DNA of 64,000 bases from Squalus acanthias (GCA_030390025.1 CM059431.1:120840001-120904000), one strand, 5' to 3'; counted from the first letter of the stretch, positions 1 to 59,881 are shown. Made by a program: numbers and translations. Notes: generated from the sequence alone by a model not told the origin.

Positions 1-2
1 TG

Positions 3-2042
3 ACTTGTAGTGGGAAGGTCCCATTGAGCCGATGGTGGTGGCTGCGAAAGCTGAGCAAAACTATGAGAAACTCTTCGGTCGAGTGGGAACGACTGGGTAA
101 TAATACCCATCGGACAATTACGGGGACAGACGGACAAGTGAAAGTCTGTTGGGACAAATGGTGGGAACCGGATGAGGGGATTTATGTATGTATGTGGGGG
201 TCAAAGTACGTTTGCCCCAAAGGCATCTCCATATTTTTTATTAATCAATGGCAGGATAACGGACAGGGGATGAGGTGGGATGCGAGCACCAGGGGGTGCG
301 GAGCCCCATTCTCCCCGATCCCAGTAAATGCCACTGAACTCATTATGCGCCCACGCAAAGCCCCGCCCACGATTCCGGTGGTTCTAGCTGAGGAAGAAGG
401 GTGCCCTAAAACTAGTAAGGGACCCGGGAATGGTTTGGTACTGGTCCCCACAGACCAGATACTCTTTCAGGGGGTACATTACGCGGTGGCCTCGGTGATT
501 TTAAATCTCACTGAGGTACGGTTACCAGAGTGGTGCCCCAAAAAGACGGAACAGTTGTATCAGGTCCTGTTGACCAAGATGTTCAGACAATTTTACGAGT
601 TTGATTTTGCAGAAATTGATAAGACAAGTTTGTACACCGCACCGCAGGAAGTTTTGGATCAAGTAGGGAGGCAAAGAAGGGGTTTGGTGAACGATGCGTT
701 CACTGCTTTTAACACAGGGACATCTGTGGTCAACGCTCTAGACAGTGTGGAGCTGCAGACCCAGATTAATGGTTTAAAAACACAGTTAAAAGACATTCTA
801 ACAGATGAGAATAAAGTGGTAGGGTCAGGTCTACACGAGGACCAAGCCATGACTCTCCATTTAAAGGAAATTATAGCAGAGCTGGAGAAACATGCGCGTA
901 CGGTAAATGCCCTGATCAGGGAAGATCGGAATGCATCCGATCAAGCTGCGCAGAACGAGGTGTGCGTGCTTTACGGGGCGTGGTTACTGGGCGAGGGCCG
1001 CAGTAATTTGGAGGATTTAAAACAAGGTTTGGTTCCGTCCTGGATAAGTAACAAACACCTACGGGCGCTCCACCCTTTTCAGAACGCATTAAGTCCGTGC
1101 CAGCTCAGGCTAGCTTCAGAAGCTTACCCAGTCCCCGTGGACTGCGGACGATCAAACCATACTATTATGGGAATAGTATTACGCATGCCGGTTTTGGGCG
1201 ACACAGCAAAGCCCGCCCCGGTATATCGGGTAGAGAACATTGGTGTCATTCAGGGGGGAGCCCACGTTCGTTATGCAGCGGTTCCACCTTACGTCATCCG
1301 CTGGGAGCAAACGATGACAGGTACAGATCTCTCTGGTTGTCGTGGCAGGGGAGCACACATAATACTGTGCCCCCAGCACTTGAATGCCTTTTTAACACCA
1401 CAGTGCGGGTTCAGAACGGCTGGCGCCAAGTCCATGAATTGCACCATGGAGGCAATGGCACAAGATCATGTGCCTCCGCAGGTAGCATACATCGGGGGTG
1501 GAACATATTGTGTTACCACTGCAGCGCAACACTACCAGCATGGAAACCGTAGCCGGTGTCCGGTGAGTGACAGCAGTTTCTGTTTTAAACCCAGGGCTGA
1601 AGTTCAAGTAGCACAACAGCGAATTATCCCAATCCCTGAACCATCCACTGTTCATCTCACAGTAAAAGAGAATTTCACCGACTTGCAGCGATTTGTCGCG
1701 CATTTTGGATACCTCATTCCCCCTCTCCCTGAACACTTAACCAAACTTCTGAAAGCCGTCGCGGTATCACAGAAACATTTTTATACATTAGAGCAGAAAA
1801 CTGTCGAAATAGGAACAGACATTCTGGACATAGTAGTTCCACCGTGGTGGAATCTGTTCACTAATATTGAAGTGCCTTCATGGATCAGAATAGCCTCCCA
1901 CATTTTAGTCGTATGTCAAGTGTTTATCGTAGTGTACCTATTGGTCATACATTGTAAAAGAGACAAACGCCTCACCAAGCATGAAAACACGGGAGAGTGG
2001 CGAGAACGTTACGTGCGCGTGCACGATGAGAGCACCGTGTAA
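3..2042 (+). CDS. env: Envelope/class I fusion glycoprotein of an endogenous LTR retroelement (F-protein-like, lokiretrovirus-/errantivirus-type), 5' partial
   Basis: Frame is open from the window edge (pos 3) to TAA 2040-2042. Furin site RQRR at 669-680 is followed by a fusion-peptide-like GLVNDAFTAFNTGTSVV, a heptad/coiled-coil region, a Cys-rich ectodomain (DLSGC..IILCP..QCG..YCV), N-glycosylation sequons, a TM segment (IASHILVVCQVFIVVYLLVIHC) and a short tail. It lies directly upstream of PPT+LTR. Confidence 0.85.
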   Translation, partial: TCSGKVPLSRWWWLRKLSKTMRNSSVEWERLGNNTHRTITGTDGQVKVCWDKWWEPDEGIYVCMWGSKYVCPKGISIFFINQWQDNGQGMRWDASTRGCGAPFSPIPVNATELIMRPRKAPPTIPVVLAEEEGCPKTSKGPGNGLVLVPTDQILFQGVHYAVASVILNLTEVRLPEWCPKKTEQLYQVLLTKMFRQFYEFDFAEIDKTSLYTAPQEVLDQVGRQRRGLVNDAFTAFNTGTSVVNALDSVELQTQINGLKTQLKDILTDENKVVGSGLHEDQAMTLHLKEIIAELEKHARTVNALIREDRNASDQAAQNEVCVLYGAWLLGEGRSNLEDLKQGLVPSWISNKHLRALHPFQNALSPCQLRLASEAYPVPVDCGRSNHTIMGIVLRMPVLGDTAKPAPVYRVENIGVIQGGAHVRYAAVPPYVIRWEQTMTGTDLSGCRGRGAHIILCPQHLNAFLTPQCGFRTAGAKSMNCTMEAMAQDHVPPQVAYIGGGTYCVTTAAQHYQHGNRSRCPVSDSSFCFKPRAEVQVAQQRIIPIPEPSTVHLTVKENFTDLQRFVAHFGYLIPPLPEHLTKLLKAVAVSQKHFYTLEQKTVEIGTDILDIVVPPWWNLFTNIEVPSWIRIASHILVVCQVFIVVYLLVIHCKRDKRLTKHENTGEWRERYVRVHDESTV

Positions 2043-2475
2043 TCGAAAAATGGCGTCACTCCCGCTCGCCGCGTGCGCCACGGAAGTTTGTACTCATATA
2101 AGATTTTCAGAGATTGTAAATACGTTGGGAACTCGACATGTTTTAAGAGTTGGGGTTTGATTATTTTGGTGATGGTGTTGATTGTTTGGTTTTTGGGTTT
2201 TGTTTTTTCCTTTCCCTGAATAAAAGACAAATATACAGGTGATACGAGAGGTATCGGCCTGGTTACGCCGGGAAGGAAAACAAGTGGTGTAAGTTTAAGG
2301 GCAAATAATGCCTACGGTGATGTAAAATGTGATTTTCTTGGGAAATAAGGACGACACAGAGACCCTAGCTAAGTTAAAAATTATGGGATTAATTTACTGG
2401 ATTCGGAGAGAAATCGAGATAATATTGCTCACCACTGTGATTTTTGATACGATAAGCGGAGTTATTCGCATCAAC

Positions 2476-2484
2476 AGGAGGGAC
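2476..2484 (+). other. Polypurine tract (PPT) of env-bearing LTR element
   Basis: AGGAGGGAC immediately precedes the TGTA start of the LTR at 2485. Confidence 0.7.
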
Positions 2485-4154
2485 TGTAGAATTCGCAATA
2501 TATCGCGATTTGATTAATGAGGAGAAAACACAAGTTTCGTTCAAACAGCTTTTATTTCAGCAGAATGCTGGCAGGTTTAAATTGGACACAAGCAGCCTGT
2601 AAAATGGCCGCCGCACCTCGTGACAGAACATTCTAGACTTTTCAACAGGCAGACAAGATGGCGTTCCAATAAACATTTGTGCAAGATCGATTAAGATGCA
2701 GCACAGTGAAGATAATACACGAGACATTATGGGTTTGCAGTATAAACATAGATACTGGAATCGGTCTCCCAGGTACAAAGGAAAGCCATTGTACCGAGTA
2801 ATCAAGGGCCCATCCAAAGGACATTAATATGTAAAATCCCAACGACTCTACGATGAGAGAGCCGTTAGCAGGTAGTTATACAGGACACTTGGAAGCCCCA
2901 AACCCCTCCAGGGAGAACACCGACCGATTTAACAATGGGAGAAATATTAACAGGTACTCAGACATTTACGAGTAGCCCCGAAACCCATTAAGAACGGAGA
3001 TCACCCATACAAGACATTTGGGCGCCAAACCCTAAACAAAAGAATGGACATTATAGTTGGGCGGGAAACGGAAGATTTTTGCACTATAATTGCAGGCTCC
3101 AAACCGTCCATTCTCTCTCTTGCTCTTGCATTCGCTCGCTTGCTCCTGTGTTTTATCCGGTCGATTCGTAACCTCGTGGCTGCTCCTGTGTACTCGTAGT
3201 TGGGCTTCTGCTTGCCCGTTGCCTCTTCTGAAAAGACTGTTGAACTTTCTGATCCGTTCGGATCTACCTCGTGTCGCGTAACGAAGACCTATGTTGGTAA
3301 CTGGCAGCGGAACCAAAGGCCCGAGATGAGATGAGATGAGATGAGATGAGAGGAGAAGAGAGGAAGACCATATCCATCGCCACGGTCAGTAAATCCCGAC
3401 CGCGCCTGTAGGTCGATCAGCCAAGTTTTCCTCGCCAGGAAGATTTCTATTTTGAACTTTTAACAAAACATATTGCATCGACGATAACGGGACTGTGTCT
3501 AAGGAGACTGGTACGTGAAACCAACCAACAGAGATCTTCATCACAGCAGACGGTCCAGCCTACTAGCCGGAGCAGCAGAAGCAAGTAAACAAGTGGGACC
3601 AGGAGATCTCCTGACCGACACGTGGGTGCTGCGGTGAAAAACATCCGATCAGCTATTCGGAATTTCTCCGAGTTATCACGAGTGGTGAGCATGAGTCTCG
3701 AGATCCTACGAAGCTAGTTTAGGATAGATATTGATAGGGGAGGGTTTAAGGATTAAGGATATTTGTAATGTGTGCCCCTATTTACTTTGTGCCGTTCGTT
3801 CCTCGTTTCCCTAAGATCGACTATATAACTGTTTGTAAGATTGTACTGTCATTAATCTGTGCTTATGACATGTATTTCATAATTTTAAGTATCATGCAAT
3901 AAAGATTTTCCATTTCGTACCTTTCAAACCAAGTCTACATGAGTTTTATCTCCATTACTGCTCTCGCATCTAAGTCCAGTGTCTAGAACCGTAAGGGAGA
4001 GTGATTCGAACCACTCACAGGTGTGTCTAGTGTTCCCAGACTGGCTGGAGACCAGAACAGGCAACCAGGCCTAGACCCGCACTGACATACAGGCTGCACA
4101 GAGCCGCGTGAATCTCACAGGCTGCGAGACACGCAGGGTCAGGAATCCCTTACA
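2485..4154 (+). mobile_element. 3' LTR (1,670 bp) of env-bearing endogenous retroelement
   Basis: TGTAGAATTCGC...CCCTTACA termini. Homologous to the reverse complement of 4155-5393 and 19993-21679. Contains TATATAA 3822-3828, AATAAA 3898-3903 and a (GAGAT)n microsatellite at ~3323-3350. Confidence 0.85.
3822..3903 (+). promoter_or_regulatory. Putative LTR TATA box and polyadenylation signal
   Basis: TATATAA at 3822-3828 and AATAAA at 3898-3903. An equivalent AATAAA is on the minus strand at 20200-20205 in the homologous solo LTR. Confidence 0.5.
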
Positions 4155-5393
4155 ATACTTCGGAGAATTTTAAAGTGAGGCGCTCGGCTCGTTTCGCTGC
4201 AGCGCCTGACTGTCACGTGTTTTGAGGGGTCTCTGTACCCCACTTGTTAATCATCGCTGCTGCTGCAAGCAGGCTGGGCTCCCCGTTGTCATGAAGAACT
4301 CGACAGCACTCGGGCCCGGCTGTAGAACTCAAAGAAAAGTCTTCCTGGACCGACACCAGTTGCCGGTAGAATTCAAAGAAGAGTCTTCCTGTATCGACAC
4401 CAGTTGTCGATAAAATTCGAGGAAGAGTCTATGACCAGTTCATGCAGTAACTGATAGAGTTCGTATAAATTCGGCACGGTCGGGGTTTACTGACCGCGGC
4501 GGCACGTGGATTCTTCTTCTTCTCTTCTCATCTCGTCTCGTCTCGTCTCTTCGGGCCTTCGGTTCCAAAACACCGTTTACCGACACTCGGGATGGTGCAC
4601 CCGGTTACTCGCCCTTCGTCGAGGCGGCTCGTCCCGATTGAGCTCCACCCAACATTCGAATAACCGTCCAGTGCGGCTAAAAGTCCAGAGTCAACAGTCC
4701 AGAGAAACAAGAGCACGAATCAAGCGAATAAGAGTCGAATCAAGAGCATCAGCTGAGATAAGAGAAAAAATAAGAGAGCGATGGACATTTGTTGTCTATA
4801 GTTATAGTGCTGTGTTCCCTTATCTCCCGCTCAAATCTTAATGTTTGTCCTTTATGAAATATTGGCGCTCAAAACTCCCAGCATGGGGTGATTCTTGTCT
4901 TTAACAGGTTTCGGTAGCACCTGAGACTGGCCAACTACCCGTTAATGTTTTCCCCATTGTTGAACCGGCTCGGAGCCTCCCTGGCTGGGTTTTGGGGGCC
5001 CCCGAATACTTGTTTAATCACCTGAGAATGGCTCTCTCATTGTAGAGCCGTGGGGGTATTTGCATATTGATGTGTCTGGATGGGCCTTCGATTGCCCAGT
5101 ACAATGGTCCTTACTTGTGCATGGAAAACGATTCCAGCACTCATATCTTTTGCTATTGTCACAAATGCAAACAGGTTGCATCCTGTCTTTATCAGTGCTT
5201 ATCGAAAATGTTTATTCGAACGCCATCTTGTCTGCCCACTGTACTTCTGGAAACTTCTGCCACGATGCGCGGTGGCCATTTTACAGGCTTCTGTGTCTTG
5301 TTTAATCATGACAGCATTTCGTTTAAATAAACTGATCAAACGAATCTGCTTCTACCTCGTTATTTCGAATCGCGATAATTGCGAAACTTTACA
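4155..5393 (-). mobile_element. Part of a related-family LTR, opposite orientation, interrupted by the env-bearing element
   Basis: Collinear with 20425-21679 (ATACTTCGGAGAATTTTAAA... to ...GCGAAACTTTACA). Begins exactly after the CA end of the LTR at 4154. Confidence 0.85.
4323..4430. repeat. 44-bp period tandem repeat (~2.5 copies) within LTR U3
   Basis: Units start TAGAACTC 4323, TAGAATTC 4367, TAAAATTC 4411. The same array recurs at ~20593-20705. Confidence 0.8.
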
Positions 5394-8019: not shown

Positions 8020-8553
8020 AGGGCTTCCATTCCCTCAATGTGCAGATCATCTGCAACCATAGGAAGATCATCAGGCATGTTTGCACCAAGTTCCCTGACA
8101 GCTGTCATGACTCTTTCGTTCTGCGCCAGTCCACCATCTCTCAGTTCTTCGCACCGCCAAACAGACTTACCAGCTGGCTGCTTGGAGACAAGGGCTATCC
8201 ACTGAAGATGTGGCTCATGACACCTTTGAGGAGGCCAAGTAATAAGGCTGAGGAACGTTATAATGAAAGTCACATGTCTACCAGATATGTCATAGAGTAG
8301 ACAATAGGCATGCTCAAAATGCACTTCAGATGCCTTGACAGATCTGGAGGAGCCCTTCAGTACACACCAGCCAGGATCTGCAGAATCATTATGGTCTGCT
8401 GAGCCCTGCAGCAGCGAGGATTAGCGCTGCATGAGGAGCAAGGCGCAGAGCGCACAGCCTCTTCAGAGGAGGAGCATCAGGTGAAAGACGAGGATGAGGA
8501 AAACTTGAAGGAGCTGGCAGTCCAGATGCCACCAGTACATGAGCACATTGCTG
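8020..8553 (+). pseudogene. Harbinger/PIF DDE transposase (HARBI1-like), C-terminal fragment
   Basis: [68 protein letters not shown], with an internal stop. The reading continues after the LTR insertion at 10234. Confidence 0.85.
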
Positions 8554-10233
8554 TGAAGGGATAATTACAAGTACTAGCCCTTTCGGACTTCCCCAGATCA
8601 GGCGTATTCCCCAGATGTTTACCTTCAACTAAAGTTTGCGGTAGCTGGATCCTATAAGATGCTTAATTGGGTCTAAAGGTCAGACTACCTCTCCCTAAAG
8701 GAAAGAAACGGTCTAAAGATGTTACCGTACTCCAGATAGTACTTTTAATAAGTTTAACTAGACTGTAACCTTCCGGATATTATAAGGGTCCAGAATACCC
8801 CCAGAATTCTGCAACTCCTTTGAGTGTACAGAATTTGAGTTCGCAAGATGATACAGAAATACTCTCTTTGAGACAATTCTAACAATATATAGATTTATTA
8901 ACGAACCGACATTTAGATAACATCTGTTGTATCCATCGCAACATTACAGTTCAAAATACAAATAGCTTCTATTTCTTATCAGAGATCCTTATTCTCAAAT
9001 CTTAACTTCGTTACATTTCCACACTTCTACTTATTTCTTATTCCAGAATATCCACCAAAATCAAATAAGAGTACCAAGATCCCCGAGACTCAAAAGTTAA
9101 AAACTTACAGAGAATGTCTGTTAAGTTGAGAAACGCTTGCCTTCTCAGCGACTTCTGACTTTCTGTTTGAAAAGGTCTATTTTTATATCTTTATTGGGTG
9201 GTTTATCCTTTGAAGTTTTCCTGATGATGTAAGCTTAATTGTATCAAGTCATTCTTTGCTGACTTTGATCTATTCTTTATTGATATCTCTGTTGAATGCT
9301 TTCTGTCTTTACTGTCAATTTAGCCATTGCATGCATAATTATGTTTCTACCGTCGATGTTTCAAAAACCATCATAAACACAATGACAGCAATGGTTTATG
9401 TTTGATGCAATACTTATCGAAGTCTTTCTATTGAATTTCTAATACTACTTTAACTGGTCTTTATCAGACGTTGTGACTCCGTGGTATTCCAAGTTCAATA
9501 CAAGAACAATGTAATTGCTTGGTGTCATTTTCAAAGTCTTTCTGTAGGTATCATATTTACAATATGTAAATTGAAAACACTTCTCTAGTATCTTCATGCA
9601 TTTCTAATTTACTTCAATTGGTTTTTATCAGACCTTGGGACTCCATCTTTCAAGCTTAACATTAAAACTATTTGTTCAGCAGGCATTTATTTTACTTGAT
9701 GTCATTTCTTCAAAGCCTTCTGTAGGTATTATATGTACAATATGTAAATTGAAAACACTTTAACTCAGTGTTTACTTGTTTTCTAGCTATCTGAATTGGT
9801 TGCATATTTAATCATGTTTCCTGTTTCTAAGTTTAACATAAAACTATTTTACGACAGGTATTTCTTACTTGATGTCATTTTTTCAAAGGCACTTGTTTTT
9901 TTTAATGTTCTGTGCACCTGTTTGACGTGTTAGCTTATAACACTTTACTTGGGTCATTCCATTGTTTTGATTCCAATGTCCAGACGCTCTGGAAGCAAAC
10001 CTTTGCTTTATCAATAGGGCTGGTTTCTTGGTCAATAATCCATTCCCATTTCAAAGCCTGTGGTGTTTTACAACTTGTCAATAACTGATCTTTATCTCAA
10101 AAGCCTGTATTGTGCCTGCAGCCTATGTCTGCTAAGGCTTATGTCTTTTAAACCCAGTATGTCATTTATTAATAATTTCAGAAATCTGTTTTTAGTATCG
10201 TGTTTTTTTCTGAATCCTGGCTATTCCTTCACA
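8554..10233 (-). mobile_element. Solo LTR (1,680 bp, AT-rich) of a separate family inserted in the Harbinger transposase
   Basis: TG...CA termini with inverted ends (TGAAGG/CCTTCA). 4-bp TSD GCTG at 8550-8553 and 10234-10237. Removal restores CACATTGCTGCCCATGAG. Internal 178-bp period duplication. Strand is inferred. Confidence 0.75.
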
Positions 10234-19992: not shown

Positions 19993-21679
19993 TGTAAGGG
20001 GTTCGGTCGTAGGTGCTGGTGCGGGGTTAGGCCTTCGTTGCCTAATACTATTGCTTGCTCTGGTCTCCGGCCAGCCTTGTTGCAATAAGCACCTGTGAGT
20101 GGTTCGACCCACTCGCCCTTACGGTTCTAACACTGGACTTAGGTGCGAGAGCAGTAATGCAGAGAAAAACTCCCGGTAGAATAGTACGAAATGGAAATCT
20201 TTATTGCATAGCATCCAAAATCATGAAGTACATGTCATAGGCACAAATTAATGACAGTACAAGTATACATACATTCATAAAACTTGGTCTAGGGTAATGA
20301 GGAACGCACGGCATATCGTAAAAAAGGGAACACATTATATTTATCCTTAATAAAACCACCCTCCCCTATCAATACCTACACTAATCTAGATTTGTAGGAT
20401 CGGGAAACATGCTCACCACTCGTGATACTTTGGAGAATTTTAAACGAGGCACTCGGCTTGTTTTGCTGCAACACCTGACTGTCACGTGTTGGAAGGGGTC
20501 TCTGTACCCCACTTGTTTATCTTCTCTGCTCCGGCTAGCAGGCTGGGCTCCCCGTTGTCATGAAGAACTTGACAGTGCTCGGGGCCTGGCTGTAGAACTC
20601 AAAGAAAAGTCTTTCTGGACCGACACCAGTTAACCGGTAAAATTCAAAGAAGAGTCTTCCTGTATTGACACCGGTTGTCGATAGAATTCGAAAGAGAGTC
20701 TTCCATTGGTTCGACAGCAACCTGATAGAGTTCAAAAATGGTCGTTATATTTACGGGCGCGGTCGGGGTTTACTGACCGCGACGGCACGTGGATTCTTGT
20801 TCTTTTCTTCTCATCTCGTCTTGTCGGGCCTTCGGGTCCAAAACACCGTTTACCGACGCTCGGGATGGTGCACCTGGTCACTGGCCTTCGTCGGGGCGGC
20901 TCGTTCTGCTTGAGCTCCACCCAACATTCGAGTAACCGTCCAGCACGGCTAGAGTCCAGAAGCAACAGATGGCTGCTCGTCCAGCAGAATTCAGCCTGAG
21001 TCAAGAGTCCGCAGAGATAAGAGCACGAATCAAGGGAATAAGAGACCGATGGACATTTGTTGTCTATAGTTATAGTGCTGGGTTCCCTTATCTCCTGCCC
21101 AAATCTTAATGTTCATCTTTTGTAAAATCTTGGCGCTCAAAATTCCCAGTATGGGGTGATTCTTGTTTGTAATGGGTTTCGGTAGCACCTGAGACTGGCC
21201 AACTACCCGTTAATGTTTTTCCCATTGTGGAACCGGCTAGGAGCCTCCCTGACGGGGTTTTGGGGGCATCCGAATACTTGTGTAAGCACCCGAGAATGGC
21301 TCTCTCATTGTAGAGCCGTGGGGAATTTGCGTATTGATGTACCTGGATGGGCCTTCAATTGCCCAGTACAATGGTCCTTACTTGTGCATGGAAAACGATT
21401 CCAGCACTTATATCTCTTGCTATTGTGTCGAATGCAGACAGGTTGCATCCTGTCTTTATCAGTGTTTGCTGCGTATTAACCAATCTTATACTGAAATGTT
21501 TATTCGAACGCCATCTTGTCTGCCCACTGAAAATTCTGGAAGCTTCTGCCACGAGGCGACGGCCATTTTACAGGCTTCTGTGTCCTGTTTAATCATGACA
21601 GCATTTCGTTGAAATAAAATTGATGAAACGAATCTGCTTTATCTCGTTATTTCGAATCTCGATAATTGCGAATTTTACA
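19993..21679 (-). mobile_element. Complete solo LTR (1,687 bp) of the env-element LTR family
   Basis: TG...CA termini. 4-bp TSD CCTT at 19989-19992 and 21680-21683. Homologous to 2485-4154 and 4155-5393. Confidence 0.9.
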
Positions 21680-22110: not shown

Positions 22111-22383
22111 ATAAAAATTGGGCCTCCAAAAAAGGTTCCAGTGTGGCGGATCGCCACCTAAACGGGCATAACCCACTTTTCCGTCTGTGGACAATATATC
22201 GGTGAACCTTCCCTTTAAGGCAGCTTACCTTTAAGACAGGAGTGGTCGGGGCTTCAGGGTTTTTCCAGAGAATTCTGGGAGCAGCTTTCTCAGCCATTTT
22301 TGTGTGCCATGCAGTGAATTAAAGTTTCTTGTTTTCCACATATGGATTCAGCCTCCATTCGTGTTTCGCGGCAGCCTCAACAT

Positions 22384-22397
22384 TGGTGACCCCGACG
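22384..22397 (+). other. Primer binding site (tRNA-Trp)
   Basis: TGGTGACCCCGACG one base after the 5' LTR end. Confidence 0.9.
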
Positions 22398-22422
22398 CTC
22401 AGAACGTATTCCGAGCACTGCA

Positions 22423-25400
22423 ATGGCGGACACGAACGCAGTTTCCGTGAAACTGCTGGAGTTTTGGGAAAACCAGCCCGAAGCCTGGTTTCTCCAAGCT
22501 GAATCTCGCTTCTGGCTGCGAAATATGACCACAGATGGGACGAAGTACGACTATCTCGTCACATCACTCAGTAGCGCCGCAGTTTCGAAGGTTTGGACAA
22601 CGCTGCAGAACCCACCAGAGGAAGGCAAGTACGCACATCTCAGGACAGCGCTCCTTAAAAAATTTACGGCCTCGGCATATCAGCGAAACTGCCACCTCCT
22701 CGACCTTCCAGGCCTCGGTGATGCCTCACCGTCAGACCTCCTCTCCCACATGCTCTCCCTCACCGACGAGAGCCCACCCGGATCCCTCTTCCGCACGCTG
22801 TTCATCCGCCAGCTCCCTCTCAGCATCCGCCCAGCGATCGTGGCGTCCGGCCTCACGAACCTGGAAGCCCTGGCCGATGAGGCCGATAAGCTGCTGTCCG
22901 CTCACTCCAGCCGCGACGTCACTCCGGACCTGGCAGCCAATGCCTGGGCGCGCCCCTCACCATCCAGCACGCAGCCACAAGGGCCTGTCACCAGGCCCAC
23001 GGGGCCTTCACGCCCCACTAACCCGGGCCACTGTTACTACCACGCACGGTTCGGCGCCAGGGCACAACGGTGCACATCTCCCTGCTCTTTCAAGTCCGCC
23101 CCCGTACCAGCCCCCGCGATGGCTGTGGGCCACGCGGGCTCCCTGCTGTTCGTTACGGATGACAAAACCGGCCGCCGGTTCCTGTGCGACATTGGGGCTC
23201 AGCACAGCATCATCCCGGCCTCCTCCCTCGACATCCAAAAGGGCGAACGAGGACCGGCGCTGGCTGCTGCTAACGGCTCGGAAATCCGGACGTACGGCAC
23301 CCGGACAGTCACCCTCGACCTCGCTGGTCGCCGCTACCGATGGGAGTTCATCACTGCCAAGGTGCTCTCCCCTCTCATCGGCGCAGATTTCCTGTGCGCC
23401 CACAGCCTACTGGTAGACATCCCCCGTCACCGCCTCGTGGACATGAACACCATGTTCCCCAACCTGGGCACCATGGCCCCCCGTCAACCCGCCGACATGG
23501 CGTCACAGTGCCACGCCCGGGCCACGGATGACTACTCGGCACTCCTGGCCGAATTCCCAGCCCTTACCAATCCGACCTTCTCCGCGGAGGCCGCCAAACA
23601 CGGGGTGGAACACTTCATCCCCACCACAGGCCCCCCAGTGTACGCCCACGCCCGCAGGCTGGACCCGGCCAAACTGGAGATCGCGCGGACCGAGTTTGCC
23701 ACCATGGAACAGCTCGGCATCATCCGCCGCTCCAACAGTCCCTGGGCCTCCCCACTCCACATCGCCCCCAAACCAGGCGGAGGTTGGCGCCCCTGCGGGG
23801 ATTACCGCCGCCTCAATGACGCCACCACCCCTGATCGGTACCCCGTGCCGCACATTCAGGACTTCTCGGCTAGACTGGCCGGCCGCTCAGTCTTTTCCAA
23901 GGTCGACCTGGTGCGCGGCTACCACCAAGTCCCCGTCCACCCCACGGACGTCCCCAAGACGGCCGTAATCACCCCCTTCGGCCTGTTCGAGTTCCTGCGG
24001 ATGCCCTTCGGCCTCAAAAATGCGACCCAGGCATTCCAACGGCTCATGGACTCGGTCCTTCGGGACCTGAAGTTCCTGTTCGTCTACCTGGACGACATCC
24101 TGGTAGCCAGTTCCTCCAAGCAGACCTCGAACACCTCCGCATCCTGTTCAGGCGCTTCAGCGACCACGGGCTCATCCTCAGCCCAGCCAAATGCCAGTTC
24201 AGCCTGGACATGATCGACTTCCTCGGCCACCACATCACCCATGCTGGGGCCATTCCCCTGCCCACCAAGGTGCAGGCCGTCCAACAATTTCCCCGCCCCA
24301 CCACCATCAAAGGCGTCCAGGAGTTCCTCGGGATGGTGAACTTCTATAACCGCTTCATCCCCAAAGTGGCGTCCCTCATGAGGCCCCTGTATGAAACCCT
24401 CCGGGGCAGGAGTGCAAGATGGCAGTCGAATGGACGGAAGACGCGTCAGCCGCCTTCGACTCCACCAAGACCGCGCTCGCCAACGCCACCCTGCTCGCGC
24501 ACCCACGGCCCAATGCCAGGGTAGCGCTCACCACGGCCGCCTCCGACCACGCGGTCGGCGCCGTGTATGAGCAGTGGGTCGACGGCGCCTGGCAACCACT
24601 TGCCTTCTTCAGCCGCCAACTACGCCCCCCGGAGGTCAAGTACAGCACCTTCGACCGCGAGCTCCTCGTGCTGTTCCTGGCGGTCCGCCAATTCCGGTTT
24701 TTGCTTGAGGGCCACCCCTTCACGGCGTTTGTCGACCACAAGCCCCTGACATTCGCAATGGCAAAGACAACCGACCCCTGGTCTGTCAGGCAGCAGCGCC
24801 AGCTCGCGGCAGTGTCCGAGTTCACCATGGATATCCAACACGTCTCCGGCCGAGACAATGTGGTAGCCGACTGCCTCTCCCGCCCCGCCATCCACGCCGC
24901 ACACCTAGCAGTCGAATACGCTCAACTCGCAGCAGACCAGATCACCGACCCGGATCTGCTCTCCGCACCCACCAACATACCAGGGCTACGCCTGGCCGAC
25001 GTCGCCTGTGGCCCGACCGCAGTCACGGTCAAGTGCAACATATCCCTATGTCAACCTTGGCCCGTCGTCCCAGCGTCCTGGCGCCGCCGGGTATTCGACA
25101 TTCTCCACAACCTCTCCCACCCCGGTGCCCGCGCATCCATTAAATTGGTAGCCAACCGCTTCGTCTGGCGCGGCCTTCGCAAGGATGTGCGTACTTGGGC
25201 CAACTCCTGCCTAGCCTGCCAACGGGCCAAGGTACAGCAACACACGAAACCACCCCTCGAGGAGTTTACCGTCCCCTCGCGGAGATTCGACCACATCCAC
25301 GTGGACATCATCGGGCCCCTGCCGCCGTCGCAAGGCCACACGCACTTGCTGACCATCGTTGACCACACCACACGCTGGCCTGAGGCAATTCCACTGACCT

Positions 25401-26230
25401 CTACCACCACCGCCGACATCGCCAGAGCCTTCGTCAGCACCTGGGTCGCACGGTTCGGCGTCCCCTCCGACATGACGTCGGACAGAGGTCCGCAATTTAC
25501 CTCTGAACTCTGGACCGCCGTTGCACGCAATCTCGGGGTGACCATTCACCGCACCACAGCATACCACCCCCAAGCCAACGGACTGTGTGAGCGGTTCCAC
25601 AGATCCTTGAAGGCATCTCTTCGAGCCAGCCTCCAAGACGGCGCCTGGACCGACCGACTTCCGTGGGTCCTCCTTGGCCTGCGCACCGCGGTTAAAAAAG
25701 ACCTCCACGCATCGGCAGCAGAGCTCGTGTACGTTCAGCCGCTGCGCGTACCCGGCGAGTTCCTGCCCACCGCCACGACACCCTGGTCAGCCGACCAGCA
25801 ACGCCACGACTTCGCCTCACCGGCGCTGCAGTTCGCCCCGGTGCCCATTGCTCGACACGGCGAATCCACCTCACACGTCCCACTAAGCCTGCACCAGGCA
25901 CGGTTTGTTTTCGTCCGGCACGACGCCCACCGCGGATCCCTTCAACCCCCGTACGACAGGCCCTACAAGGTGCTACAGGCTGGGGACAAATTTTTAACCC
26001 TGCAAGTGGGCGACAGGACCGAAAAAGTGTCGGTTGACCAACTCAAGCCAGCACACTCGGAGCCCGGTGAGCAGGTCCCTGTAGCTCGTCCACCTCCACG
26101 CGGCCGACCTGCCCTCAAGCCGGTTCACCCGGCTGCTCCACGCCCGGCCGTTCCACGTCCACCGGCGTCCTACAAGAGCCGCTCCGGCCGGCCCATCAGA
26201 CCGCCGCACCGTCTCATCCACACCTCCTAA
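22423..26230 (+). pseudogene. gag-pol: Gypsy gag-pol polyprotein with two frameshifts (~24120 and ~24410)
   Basis: Gag CX2HX9CX3C (CYYHARFGARAQRCTSPC), protease FLCDIGA, RT WRPCGDYRRLN..MPFGLKNA..YLDD, RNase H ASDHAVGAV..YSTFDRELL, integrase H..H..C..C and DDE (HVD, SDRGPQF, NGLCER). Confidence 0.93.
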
Positions 26231-26674
26231 GCGGATTCTGGGGGGAGCTGTGTGGCAGATCGCCACCTAAACGGGCATAACCCACTTTTCCGTCTGTGGA
26301 CAATATATCAGTGAACCTTCCCTTTAAGGCACCTTACCTTTAAGACAGGAGTGGGCAGGGCTTCAGGGTTTTTCCAGAGAATTCTGGGAGCAGCTTTCTC
26401 AGCCATTTTTGTGTGCCATGCAGTGAATTAAAGTTTCTTGTTTTCCACATGTGGATTCAGCCTCCATTCGTGTTTTGCGGCAGCCTCAACACCAGAATAC
26501 ATATTAATTAACATTTCAGAACTATAGATAAAAGTCTCCAATTAGAAACAACGATGTATTGAAAAGGAGCTGTAAAGCTGATGGCAATGGCAAGAATCAT
26601 GTTTTTTAGCAGAGTATTGGATGACAATTATGCATTGGCACAGAAAGGCTAAGGTGTGACCCAAAAGATGTCTT

Positions 26675-58468: not shown

Positions 58469-59881
58469 CTTTGCCTCCAATTTCCACCCTTCCCTACCTT
58501 CACATGGTCCATCTCCGACTCTTCCCTCCCCTTCCTCGACTTCTCCGTCTCCATCTCTGGGGATAGGTTATTGACCAACATTCACTACAAGCCCACTGAC
58601 TCCCACAGCTACCTGGACTACACTTCCTCCCACCCCACCTCCTGTAAGGACTCTATTCCATTCTCCGAGTTTCTCCGTCTCCGCCGCATCTGCTCCGACG
58701 ATGCCACCTTCCATACCAGTGCTTCTGACATGTCTTCCTTTTTCCTCAACTGAGGATTCCCCTCTACCATGGTCGACACGGCCCTCGACCGTGTCCGTTC
58801 CATCTCCCGCACTTCTGCCCTCACCCCGGCCCCTCCCTCCCGGAACCACGATAGAGTTCCCCTTGTCCTCACCTTTCACCCCACCAGCCTCCACATTCAA
58901 CGGATCATCTTCCGCCATTTCCGCCACCTCCAACGTGATCCCACCACCAAACGTATCTTCCCCTCACCTCCCCTTTCAGCATTCCGTAGGGACCGCTCCC
59001 TCCGAGACACCCTAGTCCACTCCTCTATCACCCCCAGCACCCCTTCCCCTTCACCCGGCACCTTCCCGTGTAAGCACAGGAGATGCAACACCTGCCCTTA
59101 TACATCTCCCCTTCCCACTCTCCAGGGCCCCAAACACCCCTTCCAGGTGAAACAGCGATTTACTTGTACTTCTTGCAATCTAGTATACTGTATTCGCTGC
59201 TCACGATGTGGTCTCCTCTACATTGGGGAGACCAAACGCAGATTGGATGACCGCTTTGCGGAACACCTCCGTTCAGTCCGTAAGGGTGACCCCGAGCTTC
59301 CGGTCGCTTGTCATTTTAATTCACCCCTCCACGCCCACTCAGACCTCACCATCCTCGGCCTCTTGCATTGTTCCACGGAAGCGCAGCGTAAGCTCGAGGA
59401 ACAGCACCTCCTCTTTCGTTTAGGCACTTTACAGCCTTCCGGACTCAATATCGAGTTCAACAATTTCAGATCATAACCCCGGCCCCTACCACATATGTAT
59501 ACATTTTATCCACTCCTTTGGTCCGTGCCTTTTTCCTTTTTTTCTCTCTCTCCCCCCACGGCAGCTGTCTCTCATTCTGCCAGCATTTCACACCTCACCT
59601 TTTGTTTCTTAACCTGTCCCATTATCATCTCGTCTTGCCTTGAGCATCTCTTAATGTCTCTACTTACCATAGACCCCCCCCTTTTGTTCTTTTATTCCTC
59701 CCCCCAACGTCCCCCTTGCATTTTTATCTGTTTAATTTCCTGCTCTTTCAGTTCCGACGAAGGGTTTCGACCTGAAACGTTAACTCTATTTCTCTCTCCA
59801 CGGATGTTGCCTGGCCTGCTGAGGTTTTCCAGCGTTTTCTGTTGTTATTTTGGATTTCCAGCATCCGCAGTATTTTGCTAT
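58469..59881 (+). mobile_element. Penelope-like element, 5'-truncated (RT thumb + GIY-YIG endonuclease + terminal repeat)
   Basis: HYKPTDSHSYLDYTSSHP..SEFLRLRRICS; ORF 58769-59476 with C..C and NLVYCIRCSRCGLLYIGETKRRL..RFAEH..GLN. Flanks AGTAATA at 58462-58468 and 59882-59888. Confidence 0.92.

Follow-up and report, generated by a model that had tools for sequence, protein, structure and literature searches.

A young, high-copy endogenous retrovirus of Squalus acanthias with a predicted paramyxovirus-F-type envelope on a provisionally SnRV-like backbone

Retroviral envelope proteins (Env) built like the paramyxovirus fusion protein (F) are known by sequence from the lokiretroviruses (2020; PMC7947760) and by structure from foamy viruses (2024; PMC11468914). 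The lokiretroviral Env matches PF00523 at E 2.2e-7 and accompanies a dual RNase H (Wang and Han 2020, PMC7947760). Endogenous retroviruses (ERVs) resembling snakehead retrovirus (SnRV) form the main coelacanth ERV class and occur also in amphibians and zebrafish (PMC4977317), as well as in the elephant shark, a chimaera, where the lineage I CmiERVs have been dated to about 75 million years (My) (Han 2015, PMC4422223); for 'Huo', a clade related to SnRV, hosts in every major vertebrate lineage have been reported (Xu et al. 2018, PMC6001957). Here we describe a complete endogenous retrovirus of 12,785 bp in the shark Squalus acanthias (assembly of 3.71 Gb), which appears to combine features of these systems. 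Its 3' end occupies positions 3-4154 of the stretch analysed, a window of 64,000 nt (CM059431.1:120840001-120904000), and its remainder lies in the 10 kb directly upstream (L031, in which coordinates so labelled are counted). We consider it likely that the following hold jointly: the provirus is a member of a young, high-copy, SnRV-like family with an F-type Env, env was maintained by selection, the family spread by germ-line reinfection, and the window copy carries a frameshift in gag.

What kind of glycoprotein does this env encode? Using an alignment of 31 family members, AlphaFold2 modelled residues 290-700 confidently (predicted local distance difference test, pLDDT, 75-94) in a postfusion-like shape with long helices at 386-497 and 733-764. 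All 37 matches listed by Foldseek against the PDB were paramyxo- or pneumovirus F proteins, the best being F of human parainfluenza virus 3 (hPIV3; E 1.7e-11). Among predicted viral structures (BFVD), the top matches were glycoproteins of arli-, lispi- and chuviruses and of a fish filovirus, baculovirus F, and the Env of walleye epsilonretroviruses (walleye epidermal hyperplasia virus 1, WEHV-1), with feline foamy gp130 matching more weakly; feature neighbours in the ESM Atlas, to be taken as leads only, fell into Gypsy-env/Baculo_F and Fusion_gly clusters. The model contains the F2 strand segment, the heptad repeat A (HRA) helices, the beta-rich head and the heptad repeat B (HRB) helix of an F-like ectodomain, and in the sequence a polybasic site stands directly before a hydrophobic fusion peptide, with a transmembrane (TM) segment towards the C terminus. 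The predicted fold is alike to that of paramyxo- and pneumovirus F (hPIV3, 1ztm; Nipah virus, 8dmj; respiratory syncytial virus, 3rki) from the start of F2 to HRB, and the order of cleavage site, fusion peptide, HRA, head, HRB and TM is the same; the shark protein differs in being encoded by a retrovirus, in its sequence (6-17% identity, no profile match) and in an extra domain of about 220 residues before the F2-like part. The predicted structure supports the assignment of Env to the class I fusion glycoproteins of the paramyxovirus-F/foamy-Env structural type (subclass Ib). In architecture and predicted fold it agrees with the F-like envelope, as opposed to a gamma-type surface/transmembrane (SU/TM) protein, that a first-pass annotation of the window had proposed. 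That annotation had listed paramyxo-/pneumovirus F, baculovirus F/errantivirus Env and lokiretrovirus Env as carriers of a long F1-like subunit; foamy-virus Env has to be added (PMC11468914). In the foamy gp130 described there (PDB 8rm0), the receptor-binding domain lies between two F-like subunits, whereas the extra domain of the shark Env is N-terminal.

Joined to the upstream sequence, the env frame comprises 836 codons when counted from the earliest ATG, which lies 468 nt before the window begins; the in-window part (3-2042, amino acids 158-836 plus stop) has 679 open codons and runs off the window's 5' end, in keeping with the uninterrupted frame of more than 670 codons first reported. 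All features of the element are on the + strand. Met54 lies 309 nt upstream of the window, and a start there gives 783 residues. Translation probably begins at this methionine, because the first 52 codons (L031 9532-9690 being codons 1-53) carry 1 synonymous and 10 non-synonymous variants in 25 copies, 3 of 30 env loci have a stop in the early codons and begin at this later Met, and Met54 opens a hydrophobic stretch, MERILVLLVAIGCGLA, with the look of a signal peptide. The Trp/Cys-rich N-terminal domain that follows (amino acids about 72-290; its C-terminal part at window 3-401) corresponds to the extra region already seen at first pass; its roughly 220 residues are kept at 38-72% identity in 8 relatives. 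Folded alone, it gave poor AlphaFold2 models (mean pLDDT 35). We infer that this domain is lineage-specific and serves as the receptor binder. It contains a CXXC motif, CLTC (amino acids 156-159; L031 9997-10000 to window 8), which is kept in some relatives and recalls the SU CXXC of gamma-type Envs; as the first annotation had it, Env contains no CX6CC motif that could act as partner, the nearest arrangement being C676-x7-C684.

The F2-like segment (amino acids 291-379; 402-668; pLDDT 76-91) aligns to F from residue ~26 and includes Cys291 and Cys335, kept in 12/12 and 13/15 sequences, respectively. It ends at the polybasic furin-type site RQRR, found where it had been placed initially (669-680; amino acids 380-383); this is the sole R-x-[KR]-R in the ectodomain, and sites of that type occur at the matching alignment position in most relatives. 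Directly behind it, GLVNDAFTAFNTGTSVVNAL is hydrophobic and rich in Gly, Ala and Thr, and by its sequence and a post-cleavage position as in F1, GLVNDAFTAFNTGTSVVNALDS (681-746) is the putative fusion peptide. The HRA-like long helical region (amino acids 386-497; 687-1022) consists in the model of helices 386-427 and 435-497 and aligns to postfusion F. It is followed by the beta- and disulfide-rich head (amino acids 530-700; 1119-1631) with conserved cysteines at 538, 603, 613, 625, 637, 660, 676 and 684, by the HRB-like model helix (amino acids 733-764; 1728-1823), with the F alignment extending to 765-768, and by the transmembrane anchor (amino acids 783-806; 1878-1949), the single Kyte-Doolittle window above 1.6. 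A cytoplasmic tail of about 30 residues ends at the stop codon (2040-2042). The post-cleavage subunit thus has the 453 residues first estimated, but this figure includes TM and tail instead of preceding them, and the ectodomain alone measures 399 residues. Eleven cysteines are conserved family-wide, two before the cleavage site and nine after it.

By sequence, this Env has few relatives. When 1.84 billion representative proteins were scanned in full with HMMER, only 50 were returned. Of the 20 that were looked up, three are unnamed run contigs, and the 17 with a host name come without exception from the elasmobranchs Rhinoraja, Pristiophorus, Mustelus, Chiloscyllium, Heptranchias, Heterodontus and Scyliorhinus, from coelacanth, or from the frogs Xenopus tropicalis, Pelodytes and Mantella. 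The hosts of the closest env relatives indicate by themselves that the genome is that of a cartilaginous fish, in line with the probable shark of the first-pass annotation. An Env-profile search returned close elasmobranch relatives alone. A Pfam scan assigned the query to no family, and none of the 31 family members matched PF00523, PF12259 or the foamy Env model (E <= 0.01), although a chimeric relative gave a sub-threshold Baculo_F match (E 0.0011). Sequence searches of the PDB with the single protein and with the 31-sequence profile yielded nothing significant, the best matches being a coronavirus spike HR2-TM (E 0.014) and an F0 chain (E 1.6). We found neither a sequence model for this env family nor a description of it in the literature searched.

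On what backbone does this Env sit? As the first-pass annotation had suggested checking, gag and pol lie just upstream, the latter in the order protease, reverse transcriptase (RT), tether, RNase H, integrase. Gag has a long, coiled-coil-like N-terminal part, a single CCHC finger, CYGCGKTGHWRKHC, and no Gly2; its stop codon is TGA, after which pro-pol continues in the same frame, a readthrough design, and env begins after the end of pol with no overlap. Pol comprises 1,484 residues with Pfam matches to aspartic protease, RVT_1, RT_RNaseH_2/RT_RNaseH (the tether, 447-579), a second RNase_H (627-770), Integrase_H2C2 and rve. Compared with solved structures, RT-tether-RNase H aligns end-to-end with the RT of murine leukaemia virus (MLV)/XMRV (E 2e-69) and with foamy protease-RT (E 1e-62), and the best structural-database match of the integrase is that of prototype foamy virus (1.4e-33). 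The organisation of Pol is that of retroviruses and not of Ty3/Gypsy elements. The degenerate tether with a second RNase H, a lokiretroviral trait, is present, and is common to canonical retroviruses as well.

Several features point to SnRV. Two reports on SnRV (PMC2717909, PMC1224870) describe a Gag that has a coiled coil at its N terminus, contains a single zinc finger and lacks a myristoylation signal, with pol reached by same-frame readthrough, a gag-stop-pol layout found also in gamma- and epsilonretroviruses. The shark element shares this Gag design, the gag-stop-pol succession in one frame and the dual RNase H. Its RT words LDISNGFWS, LPQGFH and INPKK occur in SnRV only, among the references printed in the supplement of PMC7947760; at matching positions lokiretroviral RT has ANGFWT and CPFGYSNSP, against SNGFWS and LPQGFHNSP in the shark element. 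Alignment by hand to the sequences printed in that supplement gave 93 identities in the 186 positions of the RT core for SnRV (~50%) and 63 for the lokiretroviral consensus (~34%), or about 47% and about 36% over a total of 226 positions. The nearest named Pol relatives, from frog and coelacanth (53-55% over the RT core, 39-46% over RT-RNase H), bear the same SnRV-type motifs, and the hosts match those of SnRV-like ERVs, namely cartilaginous fish, coelacanth and amphibians; two word-based Pol searches returned no exogenous virus. In a quick tree of 29 sequences, none of them a named exogenous virus, the element and one close relative (P0070) share a long branch that falls between two clades, one of frog and coelacanth sequences and one of canonical ERVs bearing MLV integrase and Gag_p30; the Gypsy sequences form a separate clade (branch length 1.68). 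From sequence comparison, we provisionally place the gag-pol backbone closest to the SnRV-like lineage, between epsilon- and spuma-like retroviruses. The novelty that the first-pass annotation saw in a chondrichthyan host does not hold for this pol lineage, SnRV-like ERVs being already described in a chimaera (PMC4422223). Those elephant-shark elements have been dated to ~75 My, whereas the present family is nearly undiverged, and the 1.67-kb long terminal repeat (LTR) is a further difference from SnRV and SnRV-like ERVs.

The family is very young and abundant. Genome copy searches scored the best candidates only, and all env, gag and pol copy counts are therefore minimum values. At least 65 env copies were scored (of 12,719 first-look candidates), and all 65 share the open frame without a stop, at 99-100% protein identity, a recurrence that speaks against a chance frame; of 31 pol matches scored, 30 are free of stops, with 1,507 codons open, gag was scored in at least 128 copies, and protein identity across env, gag and pol ranges from 97 to 100%. 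The window copy has intact pol and env and a frameshifted gag. Its gag is broken into frames of 309 and 291 codons, and the frameshift is placed near codon 295 because the gag frame is continuous at 627 or 631 codons in 115 of the 128 scored matches, these open copies align to the window copy up to residue 295 only, and the one-base length difference appears likewise in contigs of three public runs. Two differences between its LTRs in 1,670 nt, the one LTR pair for which divergence was computed, correspond to ~0.3 My if the mammalian rate of PMC7947760 is applied, or to ~2.7 My with the ten-fold slower rate that PMC4422223 assumes for a chimaera. Window positions 1-4154 are also represented in public-run contigs from four differently labelled organisms and five studies, each with about half of the sampled 31-mers; near-identical copies thus exist beyond the assembled individual, possibly in sister species.

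Does env bear the mark of selection? The 836-codon frame is present in 25 of 30 fetched env loci, which differ pairwise by a mean of 1.23% and a maximum of 2.55% of nucleotides. Measured against the window copy, 93 of the codon variants in these 25 loci are synonymous and 24 are non-synonymous (pN/pS 0.08, for singleton and shared variants alike), and in the F2-like part and the F1 ectodomain the ratio is 74 to 5. At 1-2% divergence, each neutral copy would be expected to differ by at least about 20 amino acids, and it is therefore reasonable to read the pattern as purifying selection that acted on env while the family spread. Such selection in diverging copies implies germ-line reinfection, and not intracellular copying alone.

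How might this Env promote entry? By analogy with F, we envision that furin-type cleavage at RQRR|G would free the fusion peptide and that the cleaved, metastable trimer might be triggered once the N-terminal domain binds its receptor. HRA would then extend and insert the fusion peptide, and HRB could pack back onto HRA, whereby the two membranes would be drawn together.

A number of our observations weigh against this combined picture of a selected, reinfecting, SnRV-like provirus with an F-type Env. No viral glycoprotein model was matched significantly by the Env sequence, and the mean pLDDT of the whole Env model is 55.9, with the first 287 residues unmodelled. The SnRV placement is based on common words and a count by hand; in the quick tree, the links of the element to other groups reach 85-90 SH-aLRT only, and over the 40 positions of the RT thumb the element is nearer to the printed lokiretroviral consensus than to SnRV (19 vs 13 identities, again by hand). 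SnRV is a complex virus with accessory open reading frames (ORFs) and an Env tail of 136 residues, whereas the shark element is without such ORFs and has a tail of ~30 residues. The env loci were picked as best protein matches, which biases pN/pS downward. Finally, an env mRNA splice joint was not found in the contigs of three public runs that cover the element, which possibly derive from DNA.

Conceivably, the element represents a deep retroviral lineage apart from both the SnRV-like viruses and the lokiretroviruses, with its own F-type env. The private long branch with its single close relative and weak links would fit such a lineage, as would an RT-RNase H that shares only 39-46% identity with that of the closest named relatives, from frogs and coelacanth, the mere 50 env representatives among 1.84 billion proteins, and the simple genome and short Env tail. 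Gag design, readthrough and SnRV-specific RT words are nevertheless held in common with SnRV, and the relatives of both env and pol reside in the host groups of SnRV-like ERVs, that is sharks, coelacanth and frogs (PMC4977317); we regard a separate lineage as unlikely. The first-pass annotation favoured another alternative, a lokiretrovirus (lokiortervirus), which would be the first from cartilaginous fish. The element does resemble lokiretroviruses as described in PMC7947760 in its tether and RNase H and in a paramyxovirus-F-type Env with a polybasic cleavage site, and the RT thumb leans the same way. PF00523 similarity is, however, detectable in lokiretroviral Env and in 0/31 members of the shark env family; of six env words, three of which were taken from the Xenopus tropicalis relative, none occurs in the PMC7947760 supplement with its lokiretroviral consensus translations, X. 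tropicalis included; and RT motifs and the RT core identity counted by hand favour SnRV over lokiretroviruses. In that screen, moreover, 0 of 3 Orectolobiformes genomes were positive and Callorhinchus was unmarked (PMC7947760 supplement), and the lokiretrovirus literature searched showed no link to cartilaginous fish. We therefore judge the lokiretroviral reading improbable. Least of all do we believe that the family multiplied chiefly through retrotransposition within the cell or through segmental duplication, with env kept for some other reason, for example a host function: tandem LTR-internal-LTR arrays, the pol-deleted derivative that makes up 14 of 32 env-gag pairs and the annotation of several env relatives as host genes would suit such a spread, whereas 93 synonymous against 24 non-synonymous variants in dispersed, LTR-flanked copies are hard to obtain without env-dependent replication, copies sit on many contigs and the window copy has a target-site duplication.

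Three further assignments were rejected. Membership in the Spumaretrovirinae disagrees with the CCHC finger, the in-frame gag-TGA-pol and the N-terminal extra Env domain; foamy Gag has no zinc fingers and foamy Pol is made from its own mRNA, unlike the finger and readthrough design found here. A Ty3/Gypsy or errantivirus origin disagrees with the dual RNase H, the end-to-end RT-RNase H alignment with MLV and foamy viruses and the distant Gypsy clade, and a domesticated host gene with the distribution of 93 and 24 variants across dispersed, LTR-flanked copies.

The remaining anatomy is that of a complete provirus: 5' LTR, tRNA-Arg primer-binding site (PBS), gag, (UGA), pro-pol, env, polypurine tract (PPT), 3' LTR and a 4-bp target duplication. 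The untranslated region from env to the PPT spans 430 nt (2043-2472) and is without a + strand ORF of at least 80 residues. The PPT-like purine run AACAGGAGGGAC (2473-2484) adjoins the 3' LTR (2485-4154; 1,670 bp, TG...CA), both as first annotated; its partner, identified as a repeat pair by blastn, is the 5' LTR at L031 1370-3039 (1,672 nt aligned, 99.88% identity, two differences). The direct repeat ATAC stands on both sides of the provirus, at L031 1366-1369 and at window 4155-4158. Inside the 3' LTR, TATATAA (3822-3828) and AATAAA (3898-3903) are the motifs by which alone we tentatively place the U3/R/U5 borders. No accessory gene was recognised, in that no + strand ORF of at least 80 residues lies between env and LTR or within the LTR, and an Rfam scan of the window gave zero matches. 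The PBS of 18 nt begins 5 nt past the 5' LTR and would pair without mismatch with the CCA-bearing 3' end of tRNA-Arg(TCG). SnRV likewise uses a tRNA-Arg PBS. A 22-nt pattern of the tRNA-Arg(TCG) gene occurs at 460 places in the genome, with tandem arrays on one contig (C26, about 38.99-42.22 Mb; period about 1.62 kb). The gag ATG overlaps the PBS (L031 3040-3062), and there is therefore no untranslated leader from PBS to gag.

Alongside full-length copies, the genome contains a non-autonomous, pol-deleted gag-env derivative. When the 65 env places were paired with 45 of the 128 gag places, 17 of the 32 resulting pairs had full-length spacing, 14 that of the derivative and 1 another. An example (L036, contig C792:43698-49452) retains gag and env together with the C-terminal tail of pol, and is without ~3.6 kb (L031 4887-8506: protease, RT, RNase H, integrase), in place of which stand ~245 nt of unmatched sequence; derivatives also form tandem arrays with a period of ~7.7 kb and one LTR between env and the gag of the next unit. 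In the full-length element, the integrase is followed by another ~280 residues of Pol, an acidic and proline-rich tail that matched no Pfam family (L031 about 8540-9378). Because the derivative retains this stretch, the region may carry cis signals, such as an env splice acceptor.

Elsewhere in the window, a Ty3/Gypsy element at 22141-26491 (GC 60-62%) is bounded by terminal repeats (22141-22382 and 26250-26491; 97% alike) and carries DUF7041, RVT_1, RNase H-like and integrase domains. The pol of this element lies in two frames, of 607 and 611 codons, and the initial statement that all other long transposon ORFs are broken or truncated is in this sense roughly right. An open frame at 58754-59473 shows a weak match to a GIY-YIG nuclease (E 6.6e-5), as in Penelope-like retroelements. 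A repeat directly downstream of the provirus (4169-5200) recurs at 20438-21467 with 86-92% identity; this second copy (region 20195-21556) is flanked by fragments in inverted orientation that resemble parts of the provirus LTR (77-86% similarity), possibly the remnants of an older related element.

What would such an element mean for the history of retroviral envelopes? If our reading is correct, the F-type fold occurs on a third, SnRV-like backbone, in cartilaginous fish. The literature searched yielded no account of a shark ERV with an F-type Env, although work on endogenous foamy viruses of cartilaginous fish (J Virol 2023) may bear on this point. The finding touches on the origin of retroviral envelopes and on how frequently they have been exchanged. 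With dozens of near-identical copies and gag, pol and env open, the family is about as young and as intact as one might wish an ERV family of a shark or ray to be, and germ-line invasion in an early-branching vertebrate thereby becomes directly testable. We also entertain a bolder idea, possible yet doubtful at present, according to which the family represents a still-active and perhaps infectious elasmobranch retrovirus of an undescribed, genus-level lineage near SnRV, and the F-type (subclass Ib) protein, rather than the gamma-type SU/TM, is the common Env of early-branching retroviruses. If this were true, the shark element would share an F-type Env with foamy viruses, with lokiretroviruses and with the walleye epsilonretroviruses, the Env models of which were also matched here, and would combine it with a new N-terminal receptor-binding domain.

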